From contig CAYVRK010000013.1 in NCBI GenBank assembly GCA_964453785.1, positions 25,370 through 89,369 of the forward strand: a stretch of DNA of 64,000 nt, written 5' to 3'. Below are positions 26,585 to 34,687 of the stretch, piece by piece; the stretch's first letter is position 1, and each line of letters begins with the position of its first letter. This stretch comes from an uncultured Bacteroides sp. GTDB taxonomy: Bacteria; Bacteroidota; Bacteroidia; Bacteroidales; GCA-2748055. The position numbers and the translations under genes are program-made. The notes beneath the pieces are model-generated. The model had not been told where the DNA came from. It searched no databases and saw nothing but the letters and a program-made list of their open reading frames with translations.

Positions 26585-27285
26585 GAAGAGTGCTGACTGG
26601 AATTCTGTTGATTGTTATGGCTTCGCTGTCCGCACTCCATGCCCAGAATTTTGGATTACAGGCAGGCTTCGGGATGCACGCTTCAAGAATGGATGACATG
26701 AAATACCTCCAGAAATATTTCCTGGAAAGTTACCCTGTAGAGGGAAAAATTATTTCCTCTTTCCCGGTGTATACAATGGGTTCGCTCCGGATCGTAAAAC
26801 AACTCAGTCCGGAGCTGAAAATCGGTGCCGGATATGCTTTGGCTGTCACAGGAGGCAGATCCAATTACACCGACTATACAGGAAATATCAACACCGACAT
26901 GCTGGCCTCTTCTCACCGGCTTGGAGCCTATGTTTCTTATGCGGTGTTCGGTGGTGCATGGTATGACATAGCAGTATTCGGACAACTGGATGCCAACTAT
27001 TCCGTGATGGGTATCACCACCACCCTTTATGTGTTGGGTTACCAGGATGGTGTGGTGTACAAATATACATCCATCACGCCCAGTGGTACCGCAGGATTGG
27101 AGTTCCTCTTTCATCTCAATGACTTTACCATTGGGCTGAACGGAGGGTACCAGGTCGATAAGCCGGGGAAAATGGCAGACCGGGATGGTGGCAATGACCT
27201 GAAGGATCCCAAAAACAGGGAGCGGATCCTGACATCAGACTGGACCGGTTGGATGGCCCAGTTGACAGTGCTGATCTGGTTTTAA
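26581..27285 (+). CDS. Putative small outer-membrane beta-barrel protein
   Basis: 234 aa. Signal peptide (MASLSALHAQ), alternating aromatic/Gly-rich strands, and a C-terminal aromatic residue (...LTVLIWF). Confidence 0.6.
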   Translation: MRRVLTGILLIVMASLSALHAQNFGLQAGFGMHASRMDDMKYLQKYFLESYPVEGKIISSFPVYTMGSLRIVKQLSPELKIGAGYALAVTGGRSNYTDYTGNINTDMLASSHRLGAYVSYAVFGGAWYDIAVFGQLDANYSVMGITTTLYVLGYQDGVVYKYTSITPSGTAGLEFLFHLNDFTIGLNGGYQVDKPGKMADRDGGNDLKDPKNRERILTSDWTGWMAQLTVLIWF

Positions 27286-28088
27286 ATTTCCTGGCTCTGT
27301 CCCTTTCTGATTGTGCTCAGGAAACTTCCTATGTTTTCTTCCAGCGGGCCTTCTTCCGACAGCATACTGATAAATGCACTTCCGATAATAGCACCGCTGG
27401 CATGCTTACAGGCCGATTTGAAGGTTTCCTGACTGGATATTCCAAATCCAACAAGGCCTGGAATCCCCAGATTCATGGCTTTAATTCTGCTGAAGTATTC
27501 CACCTGGTGCTGTTTCACAGATGATCTGGCCCCCGTGGTGGACGAATCAGCCACCAGATAAATGAATCCTCCGGACAGCCGGGCAATGTTGCGAATCCTC
27601 TCCTGAGATGTATGCGGGGTAATCAACAGGGCAAGGTGAACCCCATACCTGTCAAAAAGTCCCATGTATTCAGATTCATATACATCAGGGGGAAGGTCGG
27701 GAATGATCACACCATCGATCCCTGTTTCATGGCACTTCTCAAGGAATGGCTCCATTCCATACTGCATCATCGGATTCAGGTATCCCATCATTACCAGAGG
27801 GATCTGCACCGACCGGCGGATCTCCTGCAACTGCGAGAAAAGCAGTTTCAGGGTCATTCCGTTGGAAAGTGCGACCTGACTGCTCTTCTGGATCACAGGT
27901 CCGTCAGCCAGGGGATCTGAAAAGGGGATTCCGATTTCAACCATATCAGCACCATGCTTCTCCAGGGCTCTCAGGATCTTTACGGTATCATGAAGTTCCG
28001 GGTACCCGGCGGTTATATAGATGGAGAGAATCTCCCCGCTCTTTTCAGAAAACAAGCGGTCAATTCTGTTCATATTCTGATGGCTCAT
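27282..28088 (-). CDS. trpA: Tryptophan synthase alpha chain
   Basis: 268 aa. Motifs [22 protein letters not shown] and GFGIS. Last gene of the trp operon. Confidence 0.95.
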
Positions 28089-29269
28089 AATCCAAGTTTT
28101 TCAATATACGTATCCATGTCTTTATCCCCTCTCCCTGACAGGTTTACCACGACCACATCATCCTTCCTGAAGGTCAGCTTCTCAAGGGCCACCAGCGCAT
28201 GGGCTGACTCCAGCGCAGGAATGATACCCTCCTGGCGCGTGCAAAAAAAGGCAGCTTTCAGGGCTTCATCGTCTGTAGCTGCCAGAACCCTGGCCCTGCC
28301 CGTTCGGGCCAGCCATGCGTGCAGGGGCCCTACCCCGGGGTAGTCGAGTCCGGCCGATATGGAGTAGGGTTCCTCAATCTGACCGTCTTCATCCTGCATC
28401 AGGAGTGTCTTGCTTCCATGGATGATCCCGGAACTGCCCAAAAGGGAGGTAGCGGCCGAATACCCGGAGTCCGTACCCAGTCCGGCTGCTTCCACCGAAA
28501 TCAGGTTCACCCGCGGATCATCCAGGAAATGATAATAGGCGCCGGCAGCATTGCTTCCTCCCCCCACACAGGCAATGATGTAATCGGGGATCTCCCTGCC
28601 GGTTTTTTCAGCAAGCTGGGGCCTCATCTCCGCTGAAATCACCGACTGGAAACGGGTCACCATATCGGGATAGGGATGGGGACCCACCACCGAACCGATA
28701 ATATAGTGGGTATCCACCGGATGGTTGATCCAGTCCCTGATGGCTTCATTGGTTGCATCTTTCAGGGTCTTGTTACCGCTGTGGACAGGGACCACCTCAG
28801 CCCCCAGCATCTGCATCTTCTTCACGTTGGGCGCCTGGCGCTCCACATCCAGGGCACCCATGTACACGATACAATGCAGACCGGAGAGTGCACATACAGT
28901 AGCTGTGGCCACACCATGCTGTCCGGCACCTGTCTCTGCAATGATCCTTTTTTTTCCAAGGTGCCTTGCCAGCAGGATCTGGCCAATGGTATTGTTAATT
29001 TTATGGGCTCCGGTATGGTTGAGATCTTCTCTCTTCAGATAGATATTTGTACCATAATGACCGGAAAGCCGGCCGGCCCTGTACAGGGGTGTGGGGCGGC
29101 CTGCATAGTCCTTTAAAAGCATGGTGAATTCTTCTCTGAACTGGTTCGATTCAATTACGGAAAGGTAATTCTCTTCCAGTTCTTTGATATTGGGGTAAAG
29201 CATTTCAGGGATATAAGCTCCTCCAAAATCTCCGTAAAAGCCTCTTTGATCCACTTGATAATCCATCAT
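28085..29269 (-). CDS. trpB: Tryptophan synthase beta chain
   Basis: 394 aa. PLP-lysine motif [11 protein letters not shown], plus [11 protein letters not shown] and GGGSNAAG. Confidence 0.97.
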
Positions 29270-29926
29270 TCAGTCTTTTCTAATTTCTCTCATAAAATTC
29301 TCGAGCTGCTTCACATTTTTTACTCCGGGTTCAAGCTCAAACCGGCTGTTCACATCCACGCCATGGAACCACATCTGATCCAGATTCATGATTGCAGCTC
29401 CGTCGTGAGGACCAATCCCCCCACTCAGCAGGAAAGGAACGGGGAGGGAATATCCTTCCAACAGGTCCCAGTTGAATTTCCTTCCCGTTCCCCCATGGCC
29501 TTTGCCGGGTGTGTCAAACAGGAAGTAGTGTACCACACCGTAATATGCCTTCAATGCATCCTGATTCCCCAGCACCTCAGGATCAAGAGCCTTGATCACA
29601 TGGACTCCTTCATTCACAAGCGATTTACAGTAATCCGGTGTCTCATTTCCGTGAAGCTGCACCATATCAAGCCAGCCCGATTCCACAATTCGCTTGACCG
29701 ACATAAGCGGTTCATTCACAAAAACGCCCACTCGTGTTATACTGTTATCCGGGATACCAAACAGAACAGGGTCCGGCTGATCTCCCACAAACCTTCGGGA
29801 ACCCCTGAAAAAAATATATCCGACAAAATCAGGCCTCAGGATGCAAACCTCTTCCAGGTTTCCAGCGTCCTTCATCCCGCATACTTTTATTTTCAGAGAA
29901 TCAGCCATGGCGTCGAATGTTGTCAA
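29270..29926 (-). CDS. trpF: Phosphoribosylanthranilate isomerase
   Basis: 218 aa. KVCGM at the N-terminus, QLHGNE, and operon position between trpC and trpB. Confidence 0.92.
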   Translation of the reverse strand: MTTFDAMADSLKIKVCGMKDAGNLEEVCILRPDFVGYIFFRGSRRFVGDQPDPVLFGIPDNSITRVGVFVNEPLMSVKRIVESGWLDMVQLHGNETPDYCKSLVNEGVHVIKALDPEVLGNQDALKAYYGVVHYFLFDTPGKGHGGTGRKFNWDLLEGYSLPVPFLLSGGIGPHDGAAIMNLDQMWFHGVDVNSRFELEPGVKNVKQLENFMREIRKD

Positions 29927-30692
29927 TAAATGTCCTGCACTCCAGTCCCGGTTCGGTTCCTTTCATAAAAGTTTCACCCACCAGGAAAAGCCTGAATCCT
30001 GCCATTGAAAGCTTCAGTATCTCATCAGGTATGCTGATGCCGCTTTCCGATACCGGTACAACCCCAGGGGGCATTTTACCTATCAACGCAAGACTCCGGT
30101 TTGTATCCACCCTGAAGGTTGTCAGATCGCGGTTGTTTACTCCGACGTACTGAATAGAGGAATCATATTTTTCAAGTTCCTCCTCCGCGTGTACTTCAAA
30201 CAACACATGAAGTCCCAGGGAACGGGCTACACCAGCCAGATCAGCCACCTCCTGCTTTTCCAGGATGGCAGCAATGAGAAGAATAACATCCGCCCCACAG
30301 GCACTTGCTTCGTGGACCTGGTAAGAGTCGATGATAAAGTCCTTTTTAAGCAAAGGGAGATCAGGAAGTGTACTCCTGACCTCCGTCAGGTCATTCATTG
30401 AGCCTCCAAAGAAATGTTGGTCTGTCAATATACTCATGGCTGCAACACCTGCAGAACTGTAACCACTGGCCACTTCAACCGGGTTTGCATTCTCGTTGAT
30501 AGGTCCTCTTGATGGTGATCTTCGCTTGAATTCAGCAATAATTCCAATCCCCTGCCCTGGTTCCGGAAGTTCAATGGCATTGGTCTCCCTCCTGTAAAAC
30601 TGTGATACAGCGAGTTTTGACAAGGGTGTGCCCTTCTTCCTTTTCAGCACTTCAATCCTCTTATGTGCCACAATGGCATCCAGAATATTCAT
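29901..30692 (-). CDS. trpC: Indole-3-glycerol phosphate synthase
   Basis: 263 aa. Motifs IIAEFKRRSPSRG, LLKKDFIID and GVNNRDL. Confidence 0.94.
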   Translation of the reverse strand: MNILDAIVAHKRIEVLKRKKGTPLSKLAVSQFYRRETNAIELPEPGQGIGIIAEFKRRSPSRGPINENANPVEVASGYSSAGVAAMSILTDQHFFGGSMNDLTEVRSTLPDLPLLKKDFIIDSYQVHEASACGADVILLIAAILEKQEVADLAGVARSLGLHVLFEVHAEEELEKYDSSIQYVGVNNRDLTTFRVDTNRSLALIGKMPPGVVPVSESGISIPDEILKLSMAGFRLFLVGETFMKGTEPGLECRTFIDNIRRHG

Positions 30693-31684
30693 GACACTCC
30701 CTCCACCAGCAGTTTAAAAGCTTTCAGGGCTGCACCCGACTCCAGTGATTGCCTCGCCCTCTCGATCCCGCTGACCAGCCCCTTGCTTTCATCCATACAA
30801 TAGAGTGCAAAAGCAGCATTGGCAATCACCACATCATTCTGGGCTCTATTCCCTTTGCCTTCGAGTATCTTCAGGAATATCCCTGCTGCTTTCTCTACGG
30901 TTGAACCGCCAAAGATCTGATCCGCAGTTACCCGGTTCAGACCCAGGTCTCCCGGGGAAAGTGTTCTCTCGGTCAGCATGGTAAAGGATTTAAACTGCCC
31001 TGTAAGGGAAATCTCATCATATCCGTCCAGCGAGTGAATAATGCAATACTTCTTGTCCGATTCCTGGTATAGATAGTTGTAGAGCCTCGCCACATCGAGG
31101 CTGAAGACCCCCACCATCTGGTTTTGTGGAAAGGACGGGTTGACCATGGGTCCGAGCATGTTAAAGAATGTTTTGATCCTTAAACTCCTCCGCACCGGAG
31201 CCACGTTCTTCATGGCAGGATTAAAAAGGGGCGCATGCAGAAAACAGATGTTACAGCGGTCCATCTCCCTTTTCAATCTGTCACTGTCACTGGTAAATTT
31301 ATAACCGAAATACTCCAGTACATTGGAAGAGCCGCATGCCGATGAGACACTGTAATTCCCATGTTTGGCTACTTTCTCTCCGGCTCCGGCCACGACAAAG
31401 GAGGTGAGTGTTGAGATATTAAACGTATTCTTCTCATCCCCGCCCGTGCCACATACATCGATGGTATTGAATTCTGAAAGGTCAACGGGTGTACACAGTT
31501 CGAGCAGGGCATCCCGGAATCCGGCGAGTTCTTCCACTGTAATACTCCTCATCAGATAAACCGAAATGAAAGCGGCAATCTCCGCATCATTATAATTTCC
31601 CTGTGCCATGTTTGTAAGGACAAATTTGGCATCCTCTTTTCCCAGGGTCTTATGGTCGAACAGGTACTGTAAGGTCTCTTTCAT
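30689..31684 (-). CDS. trpD: Anthranilate phosphoribosyltransferase
   Basis: 331 aa. Motifs DVCGTGGDEKNTFNIST and KHGN. Confidence 0.95.
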   Translation of the reverse strand: MKETLQYLFDHKTLGKEDAKFVLTNMAQGNYNDAEIAAFISVYLMRSITVEELAGFRDALLELCTPVDLSEFNTIDVCGTGGDEKNTFNISTLTSFVVAGAGEKVAKHGNYSVSSACGSSNVLEYFGYKFTSDSDRLKREMDRCNICFLHAPLFNPAMKNVAPVRRSLRIKTFFNMLGPMVNPSFPQNQMVGVFSLDVARLYNYLYQESDKKYCIIHSLDGYDEISLTGQFKSFTMLTERTLSPGDLGLNRVTADQIFGGSTVEKAAGIFLKILEGKGNRAQNDVVIANAAFALYCMDESKGLVSGIERARQSLESGAALKAFKLLVEGVS

Positions 31685-31688
31685 ACTT

Positions 31689-32282
31689 TTACCTTTTTCC
31701 TTTCACCCAGTTTAATATGATCCTTCCCCCGTATTCAGTCAGCACAGATTCGGGGTGAAACTGAACACCCCTGACATCATACTCCTTGTGCCGGAGAGCC
31801 ATGATGTAACCTTCATCATTTTCCACCGTGACTTCCAATGCCTCCGGTAAAGTCTCCGGTTCCACCACCCAGGAATGATACCTACCGGCATCAAATTCCA
31901 CGGGAACTCCCTCCAGCAGGTAATCCCCGGGAATAATCTGTTTCATCTGCCCTATCACACCGTGGTACACAGTGGAAAGGTTTGCAATGGATCCGCCAAA
32001 AGCTTCGGCAATGGCCTGATGGCCCAGGCATACGCCAAGAATACTTTTCGTGGGACCATACCTCCTGATTAGTTCCAGGGTGATTCCCGCCTCTTCAGGA
32101 ATCCCGGGGCCCGGACTGATGAGAATTTTGTCATAGCCGCCGATCTCTTCCAGGGAAATCCGGTCATTTCTGAAAACATCCACCGGACTTTTAAGCACCC
32201 GTTCGATATACTGGACCAGGTTGTAGGTAAATGAATCGTAGTTATCCAGAACCAATATCTTCATCTGCTTTCTATTTATCAC
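31689..32282 (-). CDS. trpG: Anthranilate synthase component II (glutamine amidotransferase)
   Basis: 197 aa. ILVLDNYDSFTYNLVQY, the catalytic Cys motif GVCLGHQ, and HPES. Confidence 0.95.
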   Translation of the reverse strand: MINRKQMKILVLDNYDSFTYNLVQYIERVLKSPVDVFRNDRISLEEIGGYDKILISPGPGIPEEAGITLELIRRYGPTKSILGVCLGHQAIAEAFGGSIANLSTVYHGVIGQMKQIIPGDYLLEGVPVEFDAGRYHSWVVEPETLPEALEVTVENDEGYIMALRHKEYDVRGVQFHPESVLTEYGGRIILNWVKGKR

Positions 32283-33690
32283 TGTTTATTTTCCGTGCCA
32301 TTTCAATGGCCGATTTCAGGGCTGCCAGTTTGTTGTTTACTTCCTGAAGTTCACCCTCCTCGGTAGATTCAGAAACAATTCCCGCACCAGCCTGATAATA
32401 GAGCACATGATCGCGTGAAAGGAACGAACGGATCATGATGGCATGATTGATATCCCCGTTAAACCGTATAAAACCGATGGTCCCGCCGTAGTAACCCCTC
32501 CTCTTCCCTTCGTATTTATCGATAAGTTCCATGGCCTTATACTTGGGAGCGCCCGATAGGGTACCGGCCGGAAACGACTCGGCCATGATCCTGATGGTAT
32601 TGGCCTCCTCCGGAAGTGTTCCTGAAACCTTGGAGACCATATGGATCACATGTGAATAGAACTGAATCTCACGATAAAACTCAACCGTCACTTTGCTGGT
32701 TGTCCGGCTCAGATCATTCCTTGCCAGATCCACCAGCATCACATGCTCTGCATTTTCCTTGTCATCCGCAGCCAGTTTTTTGGCCAGCTCCTGATCCTCC
32801 CGGTCATTCCCTGTCCTTCTGAAGGTTCCTGCAATGGGATTGATATAGGCTTTCCCTTGCTTGACCTCGATTTGCGCTTCCGGTGAGGAGCCAAACAATT
32901 TGTAACTGCCGTAATCAAAATAGAAGAGGTAGGGAGAGGGATTGATAGAACGCAGTGCCCTGTAAACATTAAATTCATCACCGGTAAAAGACTGGTAGAA
33001 CTGGCGTGAAAGTACGATCTGGAAAACATCGCCCCGAAAACAATGTTCTTTTCCTTTCACAACCATGTGGCGGTACTCTTCATCGGTCAGGTTGGATGAT
33101 TCAGATCCTGTGACCCCAAAAACATAGGTAGCTATATTCCGGTTATGGAGCAGGGATGTCACCGAGTCAATTTCACTCTCCCCTCCGTTTACAATATTCT
33201 CAAACAAAAGCAACTCATTGGTCAGATGGTTGATGGCAAGTACATACCGGAAAAAATTGTACCTGATCTCCGGTATCTCCTCCTTTTCGGGCATGGGAGA
33301 TGTGAACGAAATATCCTCAAAATACTGGACAGCATCATAGGTGGAATAACCAAACACGCCGTCCACCATCATATCCTTCCCGCCGGCAGTGACATCAAAA
33401 GATGATACAAAAGCATTCAACTGATCCACTGCATTATTTTCTTCCGATATGATGGTCTGAAGCGGTTCCTCCCCGGGAAGCATGATCATTGCCATCCCGT
33501 TATGAACCTGGAATTCTGCCAGCGGGTCCATGCAGATAAAGGAGAAGGAGTTCTCCTTGCTGTGATAATCCGAACTTTCAAGGAGCAGCGACCCCGGGTA
33601 AATATCTCTCATTTTCAGGTAAATGCTCACTGGTGTGATGATGTCTGCCAGAATTTTTCTGGATTCGACTCTGACTGGTATTTTCTTCAT
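32272..33690 (-). CDS. trpE: Anthranilate synthase component I
   Basis: The track ORF extends to 33756 through the leader terminator. The ATG at 33690 (MKKIPVRVESRKILADIITPVSIYLK) is the homologous start. Chorismate-binding motifs are GYYGG and GAGIV. Confidence 0.95.
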   Translation of the reverse strand: MKKIPVRVESRKILADIITPVSIYLKMRDIYPGSLLLESSDYHSKENSFSFICMDPLAEFQVHNGMAMIMLPGEEPLQTIISEENNAVDQLNAFVSSFDVTAGGKDMMVDGVFGYSTYDAVQYFEDISFTSPMPEKEEIPEIRYNFFRYVLAINHLTNELLLFENIVNGGESEIDSVTSLLHNRNIATYVFGVTGSESSNLTDEEYRHMVVKGKEHCFRGDVFQIVLSRQFYQSFTGDEFNVYRALRSINPSPYLFYFDYGSYKLFGSSPEAQIEVKQGKAYINPIAGTFRRTGNDREDQELAKKLAADDKENAEHVMLVDLARNDLSRTTSKVTVEFYREIQFYSHVIHMVSKVSGTLPEEANTIRIMAESFPAGTLSGAPKYKAMELIDKYEGKRRGYYGGTIGFIRFNGDINHAIMIRSFLSRDHVLYYQAGAGIVSESTEEGELQEVNNKLAALKSAIEMARKINSDK

Positions 33691-33707
33691 TTCTGTTGTT
33701 TTAAGAC

Positions 33708-33737
33708 AAAAAAAAAAGCTTCCGCCGAAGTGGAAGC
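33708..33737 (-). terminator. Intrinsic terminator (attenuator) 17 nt upstream of the trpE start codon
   Basis: The minus-strand RNA reads GCUUCC-A-C-UUCG-G-C-GGAAGC followed by U10. That is a 6-bp GC-rich stem plus a C-G pair closing a UUCG tetraloop, then GUCUUAAAACAACAGAA and the AUG. Confidence 0.8.
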
Positions 33738-33769
33738 CCTTTATTTTATGATGCACAAAGAGGCAGATC

Positions 33770-33829
33770 CTAATCTCCGGCTTGTCGGAAAAAAGTTTGC
33801 CACCACCAATTTGTGCGAATCTGTATCAT
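33770..33829 (-). CDS. trp operon leader peptide (19 aa) with three consecutive Trp codons
   Basis: My minus-strand translation: ATG ATA CAG ATT CGC ACA AAT TGG TGG TGG CAA ACT TTT TTC CGA CAA GCC GGA GAT TAG = MIQIRTNWWWQTFFRQAGD*. The TGG codons occupy 33808..33800. The stop codon lies 32 nt upstream of the terminator stem. Confidence 0.75.
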   Translation of the reverse strand: MIQIRTNWWWQTFFRQAGD

Positions 33830-33919
33830 GTTCAATTATTATTCAGGGTCAAAATAAAAGAAAGATTTCTATTATTCCAAATTTGATTACTTTCATCCAA
33901 CTGATATAAATGGTTACAA

Positions 33920-34687
33920 ATGGACAATAAATACCTTAGGAACGCCGTGCTTTTTTTCACCATCTGGGTGATTGTCATGGTAATCTATTCTTTGTCAGGT
34001 AAAGTAACGGATTTCGAATACCTCTGGAAATTTTTTCTTTTTCCCGGCCTTTTTCTTTCCGGAATTGCACTCCTGGCAACTGGATTTTCACAACTCTTCC
34101 GGGTAAAAAAAGGGATCAACTGGCTCTTTCTGGTTGCAGCAGTTGGCATGGATCAGGGCATCAAAGCGATTCTGTTCTCCCTGGAATGGGAAACCATGTC
34201 CATTCCCCTGATCCCTCCCGTATTCTATATTCAACCCACCCAAAACACACTGGGTTCATACCTGTGGGTGCTGCTTGGCCTCAAGGATGGTTCTCATCTG
34301 CTGAACATCATCCTGTTCAGTATCATCGGAATTGTATTCATTGAGGTGTGGCGGTTTTATGTGAAACGAAAAAGGAACAGTTTCTGGATCAATGGTTTCA
34401 TACACCTGTTTCTGGCGGGGCTTGCAGCCAACCTGATTGATAATGCCTTCTGGGGTGGGTCTCTGGACTACCTGACCATCAAGCCATTCTACACCTTCGA
34501 CCTGAAGGATCTATACATCACCCTTTGTGAGCTCTTCCTGATCACCGAACTGATTGACAATAGCTTGCTAAAACGATTTTTGAAAATGCCCAAAGCGGAC
34601 AGCAAAAGAATCAACAGGGATTTTATCCAATTTGTAAAAAGGGATTTCCGGCTTGGAAAGAAAAATGGTGGTGACAAGAATACCTGA
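33920..34687 (+). CDS. Polytopic membrane protein, divergent signal-peptidase-II (LspA, peptidase A8)-like
   Basis: 255 aa with about 5-6 TM helices. LAGLAANLIDNAFWGGSLDYL...FYTFDLKDLYITL resembles the two Asp-containing LspA motifs (GNLIDR...VVDF...FNxAD). The assignment is by eye only. Confidence 0.5.
   Translation: MDNKYLRNAVLFFTIWVIVMVIYSLSGKVTDFEYLWKFFLFPGLFLSGIALLATGFSQLFRVKKGINWLFLVAAVGMDQGIKAILFSLEWETMSIPLIPPVFYIQPTQNTLGSYLWVLLGLKDGSHLLNIILFSIIGIVFIEVWRFYVKRKRNSFWINGFIHLFLAGLAANLIDNAFWGGSLDYLTIKPFYTFDLKDLYITLCELFLITELIDNSLLKRFLKMPKADSKRINRDFIQFVKRDFRLGKKNGGDKNT

Follow-up and report, generated by a model that had tools for sequence, protein, structure and literature searches.

The trpEGDCFBA operon of an uncultured Bacteroides sp. 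(GenBank assembly GCA_964453785.1) is preceded by a short leader region. The locus lies in a stretch of 64,000 nucleotides (nt) of contig CAYVRK010000013.1 (positions 25,370 to 89,369, forward strand), which as a whole is called the window here, and positions are counted from its first letter. The closest described systems are the trpL attenuator of Escherichia coli and the Bacteroid-trp leader of Bacteroidota (RF01692). In the trpL attenuator, tandem Trp codons are located in a short open reading frame (ORF), a 1:2 anti-antiterminator includes these codons, a ribosome that has reached the stop codon covers the 5' strand of the antiterminator, and trpE is preceded by an intrinsic terminator. 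The Bacteroid-trp leader was predicted in 2010 (Weinberg 2010, Genome Biol 11:R31, PMC2864571) and is found 5' of trpE or trpB; it is a long hairpin that has a short ORF with at least two UGG codons on its 5' side, contains an inner hairpin and is followed by a terminator. The passages of that paper on the motif call it 'a loosely conserved hairpin', give no consensus diagram and presume peptide-leader attenuation as its function. Both the description in these passages and the Rfam model end at the 5' arm of the terminator and do not include an antiterminator. For Flavobacterium psychrophilum, which belongs to a different order, the parts of a transcriptome study that deal with attenuation report 'strong clues' for leader-peptide attenuation before amino-acid operons (Guerin 2021, PMC9723704) and contain neither a mechanistic model nor a mutational test. 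Leader-peptide-like small ORFs are mentioned in the Bacteroides thetaiotaomicron transcriptome literature. An experimental dissection of a Bacteroidota trp leader was not found in the literature.

The leader in the window shares the features listed above for the trpL attenuator and for the Bacteroid-trp leader. It is very probably a ribosome-mediated leader-peptide transcription attenuator that sets the expression of trpEGDCFBA by the supply of charged tRNA-Trp. This reading had been proposed in a first-pass annotation of the sequence, and it is supported by the conservation of the ORF, the terminator and the alternative folds, together with the lack of a TRAP gene and of a T-box match. The same annotation called leader-peptide attenuation rarely annotated in Bacteroidota genomes; with the Bacteroid-trp leader already described, such an element is no novelty for the phylum. 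The general picture is unchanged: a textbook mechanism in another phylum, where it was predicted in 2010. Compared with trpL, the window leader has one Trp codon more (three instead of two), lacks a Shine-Dalgarno sequence and contains an additional inner hairpin (P2), and its antiterminator reaches the loop of the terminator and the top of its 3' arm besides the 5' arm. RF00513, the E. coli Trp_leader, was not among the 16 Rfam matches to the leader region at E <= 10. We know of no TrpR-type repressor alongside the window leader. Compared with the Bacteroid-trp leader, the genus of the window has CCGGAG/CUUCGG instead of the common CGUGAG/CUCACG, a UUCG tetraloop at the apex of the terminator and an ORF length fixed at 19 codons.

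The leader ORF, on the minus strand, has 19 sense codons encoding MIQIRTNWWWQTFFRQAGD (ATG ATA CAG ATT CGC ACA AAT TGG TGG TGG CAA ACT TTT TTC CGA CAA GCC GGA GAT TAG), of which codons 8 to 10 are three tandem Trp codons (TGGTGGTGG). Its ATG, which is preceded by A-rich sequence, is located 139 nt upstream of the trpE ATG. The terminator stem, GCUUCC-A-C-UUCG-G-C-GGAAGC, starts 32 nt past the leader stop and is followed by a tract of ten U residues (U10), which ends 17 nt ahead of the trpE ATG. The same hairpin was picked up independently by a terminator scan, and every coordinate and sequence that the first-pass annotation had given for the ORF and the terminator was reproduced. The fold of the 156-nt leader region had an energy of -41.5 kcal/mol, compared with -30.3 +/- 3.7 kcal/mol for shuffled sequences (z = -3.1), and none of 200 shuffles equaled it. 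The TGGTGGTGG nonamer was counted seven times in the window, against 0.8 expected, chiefly within coding sequence; the case therefore stands on context and conservation.

The longest ORF in the trpE frame opens at GTG 33756 and would cross the terminator, on which ground this start had already been doubted. The TrpE proteins of at least 20 relatives align from residue 1 of the protein that begins at ATG 33690, indicating that this ATG is the start of trpE. The length of the open frame 5' of this ATG differs among the genomes of relatives. In the annotation of the locus, the trpE start should be moved from GTG 33756 to ATG 33690, and the leader ORF and the attenuator should be added.

For comparison within the genus, trpE was found in 22 same-genus genomes (71 to 97% identity), and the upstream regions were aligned. 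The Trp-rich mini-ORF and the terminator with its U-tract were present in all 22. The leader ATG and the three Trp codons at positions 8 to 10 were invariant, and the ORF had 19 codons in 21 of the genomes and 20 codons in one (G006). In the latter, a 1-nt deletion in the leader moves the stop to a TAA 4 nt further on, while the stop is TAG in the other 21. The sequences that were invariant or nearly so are the ATG, TGGTGGTGG, CCGGAG, TAGG, GGC-TTCC, C(TTCG)G and the T-run, and the spacing of 19 nt from the Trp codons to CCGGAG was constant. In contrast, the leader residues other than WWW varied freely. The preservation of frame, length, WWW and stop while other codons vary indicates a regulatory ORF rather than a functional peptide. 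In three of the genomes (G001, G012 and G004), an extra insert of about 30 nt is found between the U-tract and the trpE ATG, giving a total distance of about 50 nt, whereas it is 17 to 23 nt in most members.

The minimum free energy (MFE) fold of the free RNA consists of P1, P2 and the terminator extended by A:U pairs. In P1, GCACAAA pairs with UUUGUGC and GGUGG pairs with CUGCC, enclosing the Trp codons and P2. The P1 pairs were formed in 85 to 95% of the cells of the 22-genome alignment (helices 1 to 3), with some compensatory changes. The conserved core of P1 is GCACAA:UUGUGC, which flanks the Trp codons, and GGUGG:CUGCC is secondary. P2 is formed between UUUCCG and CGGAGA, with 89% of cells paired and an invariant CCG:CGG core; judging from the fold, it may hide the antiterminator strand while the leader is untranslated. 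The terminator stem GCUUCCAC/GCGGAAGC with its C(UUCG)G apex was paired in 99% of cells, with G-C/G-U/A-U exchanges and one compensatory pair. For P1, P2 and the terminator together (29 pairs), 93.2% of cells were paired, compared with 34 to 58% when the 3' partners were slid by 1 to 3 columns, and five of the pairs showed double-sided changes. RNAalifold recovered the terminator from the genus alignment but not P1 or the antiterminator; therefore, these helices were set by hand and tested with pair counts.

The antiterminator strand GCCGGAG covers codons 17 to 19, ends 3 nt before the stop and is complementary to the strand CUUCGGC at the terminator apex. The 6-base-pair (bp) core of this helix, CCGGAG:CUUCGG, was paired in 98.5% of cells. 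The inner antiterminator pairs, GGA:UCC, GCC:GGC and CUUUGU:AUAAAG, occupy the 5' arm of the terminator. Across the genus, GG:CC was paired in 98% and GCC:GGC in 88% of cells, whereas CUUU:AAAG is lineage-specific, and other members carry a small AUUGU:ACAAU hairpin at this place. Overall, 91.8% of the antiterminator pairs were formed, compared with 41 to 63% when slid. A four-segment scheme drawn by eye in the first-pass annotation is thus borne out in part. Its 3:4 pairing is the terminator of the free RNA, and its 1:2 pairing exists, although the conserved core of the latter is GCACAA:UUGUGC and not the segment around GGUGG. Of its 2:3 pairing, the GCC:GGC part is conserved and the CUUU:AAAG part is not. 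The main conserved antiterminator strand, GCCGGAG, had been overlooked.

Folding of the window sequence gave the terminator for the free RNA and for a ribosome mask over the stop. A mask with W9 or W10 in the A site made the antiterminator the MFE structure (-23.8 and -22.6 kcal/mol, respectively), and a mask with W8 in this site left P2 and the terminator in place. The MFE structure under the W9 and W10 stalls is a long imperfect helix (UUUCC:GGAAG, GCCGGAG:CUUCGGC, GGA:UCC, GCC:GGC and CUUUGU:AUAAAG), which uses up the terminator loop and both arms. Constrained and unconstrained folding of the window sequence thus predicted the mutually exclusive terminator and antiterminator structures that the first-pass annotation had envisaged. 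In RNA prefixes ending before the 3' arm of the terminator, 6 to 12 nt of the 5' arm were engaged in an alternative fold in every genus member (-10.9 to -18.6 kcal/mol).

For the switch itself, we infer that the leader ORF is translated, that ribosomes stall in it, that ribosome and polymerase are coupled and that the outcome responds to Trp. Transcription would begin at a conserved promoter of the Bacteroidota type about 15 nt 5' of the 19-codon ORF. If the leader is untranslated or the ribosome has gone, P1 and P2 would form, the terminator would fold and the polymerase would halt at U10. When Trp is plentiful, the ribosome would reach the UAG with its footprint over GCCGGAG (3 to 9 nt before the stop) and the following GGA and GCC; the antiterminator would then be blocked by the footprint and the terminator would fold. 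When Trp is scarce, the ribosome would stall with W9 or W10 in the A site, and P1 would open together with the base of P2. This would leave GCCGGAG, 19 nt past the last UGG, exposed, so that it would pair with the apex strand CUUCGGC, and GGA, GCC and CUUUGU would pair with the 5' arm of the terminator. With its 3' arm left without a partner, the terminator would not form, and the polymerase would continue into trpE. A working attenuator would imply tight coupling of the ribosome and RNA polymerase in Bacteroidota, and the arrangement of P1, P2, stop-proximal strand and apex offers a testable structural model for a switch known in the phylum from prediction alone.

Translation of the leader might instead act on the translation of trpE or on mRNA stability, by re-initiation, unmasking of the ribosome-binding site or Rho-dependent polarity, and not via the terminator. 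Higher translation through re-initiation has been proposed for leader ORFs near structural genes, and in Bacteroidetes the peak of such distances is at 11 to 14 bp (PMC4833913). In the window, however, 79 nt separate the stop of the leader from the trpE ATG and hold a strong terminator with its U10, and what has been conserved is the set of parts of a terminator/antiterminator switch, which makes an effect of this kind extremely unlikely.

Several results weigh against transcription attenuation as the function of the leader. The ORF lacks a Shine-Dalgarno sequence, and a demonstration of transcription-translation coupling in Bacteroidota was not found in the literature. In full-length folds of five genus members, the terminator was still the equilibrium MFE structure under the stall mask in four (G010, G005, G003 and G024); the antiterminator must therefore win kinetically during transcription, as in E. 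coli. The contacts of the apex helix with the terminator are confined to the loop and the upper end of the stem, and the helix excludes the terminator only in combination with the 5'-arm pairs and a topological argument. According to this argument, the apex helix and the full terminator should be unable to coexist as a pseudoknot, because no linker nucleotides separate the apex strand from the 3' arm, as would be needed to span a 7-bp helix. Within the genus, covariation in the antiterminator was not significant, with 61 to 122 of 500 shuffles reaching the observed values. This is attributed to the near invariance of the antiterminator helices, and support from covariation was therefore taken from the comparison between families. 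Finally, the leader scored 23.8 bits against RF01692, compared with a gathering score of 49, and a scan of the whole genome with Rfam did not find RF01692 at the gathering threshold or at E <= 0.001.

The permissive cmscan match to RF01692, whose Rfam title is 'Bacteroidete tryptophan peptide leader RNA' (33852 to 33732, minus strand), nevertheless extends over the full length of the model (positions 1 to 131), with UGGUGGUG aligned on UGGUGGUG, the hairpins in register and AAAGGGCUUCC of the window aligned to the 3' end of the model. The features of RF01692 that are found in the window are the position directly 5' of trpE, at least two conserved UGG codons, the long hairpin with a nested hairpin and the 5' arm of the terminator. 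We treat the leader as a divergent, sub-threshold homologue or analogue of the Bacteroid-trp family and not as a member by the Rfam criterion. The score below threshold means that annotation pipelines miss the leader. In other families of the order, RF01692 scores were 47.5 and 39.6 bits. As RF01692 misses the whole genus, and the best scores in other families are also below 49 bits, leader-peptide attenuation is under-counted in Bacteroidota. In a scan of genome contigs, the pattern TGGTGGTGG N17-21 CCGGAG NN TAG was too loose, with many chance matches in unrelated phyla among the matches listed. A fluoride riboswitch match (33532 to 33654, plus strand; 24.4 bits, gathering score 34) was judged spurious, as it runs antisense to trpE within the coding sequence and aligns only with a 67-nt insertion; it recurs in a 97% identical genome, as identity alone predicts. 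The matches to ctRNA_p42d, sau-19, Phe_leader and suhB cover the terminator hairpin only and were far below threshold.

For comparison between families, the regions 5' of trpE were collected from other families of the order (59 genomes). At 31 of these 59 loci, a terminator was preceded by an ATG mini-ORF of 14 to 28 codons that includes two to four tandem Trp codons (WW, WWW or WWWW), and three more loci carried variant leaders (TTG start or W-x-W). In about 20 of the 59 genomes, the 3' end of trpB lies directly before trpE, a different operon order, and trpE has no leader of its own. In the 31 leaders, the terminator apex, i.e., the loop and the top of the 3' arm, has its complement in a segment that lies at the stop or overlaps it, although the sequences differ by family. 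The pairs of leader segment and apex include CCGUGAG with CUCACGG, UACCGUGA with UCACGGUA, AUCGUGAAA with UUUCACGAU, CCGUAA with UUACGG, GUGGAGAGGU with ACCUCUCAC and CUUGUUGUGUUAAGC with GCUUAGCACAAG, and in many of the leaders the UGA stop itself lies inside the complementary segment. The native duplexes between leader end and apex had a mean energy of -9.56 kcal/mol, compared with -7.41 +/- 0.41 kcal/mol for permuted partners, and none of 20,000 permutations was as low. When the leader segments were shuffled, the mean z was -1.9, and in 11 of 32 loci no more than 5 of 200 shuffles reached the native value. Complementarity between leader end and apex was also seen in the first five sequences of the Weinberg alignment (-9.9 to -16.2 kcal/mol), and this pairing is an addition to the published description of the Bacteroid-trp leader.

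It is an evenly balanced question whether the trp leaders of Bacteroidota share a phylum-wide, so far undescribed antiterminator design in which the nucleotides next to the stop mimic the 5' arm of the terminator and invade its apex (the loop and the top of the 3' arm). If they do, the terminating ribosome itself would cover the antiterminator strand, and the constant distance to the Trp codons would serve as a ruler. The Rfam model could then be extended and become far more sensitive, and the leaders would provide a concrete model, open to mutation, on which transcription-translation coupling could be tested in a phylum whose initiation is not led by Shine-Dalgarno sequences.

In a test of reading frames, an ORF with a stop placed so as to bring the terminating ribosome over the antiterminator strand was found in the UGG frame at 32 of 32 loci and at 1 and 5 loci in the other two frames. 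The test is partly circular, because the loci were chosen for having an ORF, and is therefore supporting evidence only. It bears on the possibility of a protein or tRNA sensor for the leader RNA, in the manner of TRAP or the T-box, with the UGG repeats as a binding site and not as codons. Firmicutes control trp operons by TRAP and T-box, and the UGG repeat is the best-conserved RNA element of the leader. However, the TRAP gene (mtrB, PF02081) was absent from the genome, with the Bacillus subtilis control positive, and the leader strand had no match to the T-box or another riboswitch family even at E <= 10. Furthermore, the leaders contain only two to four UGG triplets, which at all 32 loci of the partly circular test are in frame with an ATG and with a stop at which the ribosome would cover the antiterminator strand. 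Sensing by a protein or tRNA is accordingly given hardly any credence compared with attenuation by a translating ribosome.

A scan of the whole assembly for a short ORF with a codon run, a terminator and a long ORF in this order returned the trpE leader and two more candidates, both outside the window. The first is a His leader candidate, MRNNNQHWIHHHRHHVSG, with 5 His in 6 codons (G000:C1:138797-138977, minus strand); its terminator GGUUUGCAGAUACUGCAGACC with U6 lies directly upstream of hisG (TIGR00070, 188.7 bits). The second is another Trp-rich leader, MNNYTVINVWRWHWWQFTWNASWAMDGL, with 6 Trp (G000:C67:6706-6941, minus strand). It has a strong terminator, CGGGGC...GCCCCG with U10, upstream of a TrpB-like pyridoxal phosphate enzyme (NF009057, 727 bits), and was not matched by RF01692 at genome scale. 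Since these two leaders were recovered besides that of trpE, leader-peptide attenuation appears, from sequence, to be a general device in this organism. F. psychrophilum is similar in having attenuation candidates at several biosynthesis operons (PMC9723704).

Upstream of the leader ORF, a promoter-like block with a -33 TTTG, a 21-nt spacer and a -7-like TATTTTG was the best-conserved stretch of the 22-genome alignment, with invariant TTTGG and AAATCTTT and a TAnTTTG-like box. We take the TTTG/TATTTTG pair to resemble the -33/-7 promoter consensus of Bacteroidota, and the block would accordingly serve as the promoter, with a transcription start about 15 nt 5' of the leader ATG. The spacer GAATAATAGAAATCTTTCTTT is conserved across the genus beyond the need of promoter function alone, and it might be the operator of some regulator. 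The 24-mer around the spacer occurs only once in the genome, and there is therefore no sign of a regulon.

A repressor on this conserved spacer could regulate the operon at the promoter, with a constitutive or leaky terminator behind it and a mini-ORF that is incidental or encodes a micropeptide. The conservation of the block including the spacer agrees with this, as does the dominance of the terminator at equilibrium in most genus members even with the leader masked. On the other hand, the peptide is not conserved beyond WWW, whereas the frame, the length and the stop position are. Trp codons before Trp genes recur in the 31 leaders of other families, in RF01692 and before trpB2 of the same genome, and the complementarity between leader end and apex co-varies, which would be needless for a plain terminator. 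Together with the single copy of the 24-mer, these findings render repression in place of attenuation very improbable; a repressor could act in addition to attenuation.

Table 1. Positions of the trp leader elements, the operon and the flanking features in the window
Feature	Position	Strand	Basis
Leader ORF, trpL-like (ATG at 33829; TAG stop 33772..33770)	33770..33829	-	Sequence reading; 22-genome alignment
Trp codons 8-10, proposed stall site when charged tRNA-Trp is short	33800..33808	-	Invariant 22/22; WW/WWW/WWWW in 31 other-family leaders
P1 anti-antiterminator	33753..33816	-	MFE fold, genus pair counts, RF01692 architecture
P1, GCACAAA:UUUGUGC	33816..33810 : 33759..33753	-	
P1, GGUGG:CUGCC	33807..33803 : 33766..33762	-	
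P2 inner hairpin	33774..33791	-	MFE fold, genus pair counts
P2, UUUCCG:CGGAGA	33791..33786 : 33779..33774	-	
Antiterminator 5' strand 'A', GCCGGAG	33775..33781	-	Genus conservation, masked folds, between-family co-variation
Antiterminator inner part	33736..33770	-	Masked folds, genus pair counts
Inner pair GGA:UCC	33770..33768 : 33734..33732	-	
Inner pair GCC:GGC	33764..33762 : 33738..33736	-	
Inner pair CUUUGU:AUAAAG	33760..33755 : 33744..33739	-	
Intrinsic terminator including A:U extension and U10	33708..33742	-	Sequence, fold, terminator scan, pair counts
Terminator stem	33737..33718	-	
Terminator apex strand CUUCGGC	33730..33724	-	
U10 tract	33717..33708	-	
Promoter-like block	33850..33884	-	Genus alignment; function inferred
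-33 TTTG	33881..33878	-	
21-nt spacer	33857..33877	-	
-7-like TATTTTG	33856..33850	-	
Regulated operon trpEGDCFBA (proposed)	27282..33690	-	NCBIfam matches, all seven genes
trpE	33690..32272	-	NCBIfam
trpG	32282..31689	-	NCBIfam
trpD	31684..30689	-	NCBIfam
trpC	30692..29901	-	NCBIfam
trpF	29926..29270	-	NCBIfam
trpB	29269..28085	-	NCBIfam
trpA	28088..27282	-	NCBIfam
Divergent neighbour, membrane protein	33920..34687	+	TIGR00077 (weak)

The divergent neighbour of the leader encodes a membrane protein of 255 amino acids with a weak match to lspA (signal peptidase II; TIGR00077, 34.8 bits, cut-off 73.95). Only 36 nt separate its ATG and the -33 box of the putative trp leader promoter, indicating a very short divergent control region that is common to both genes.

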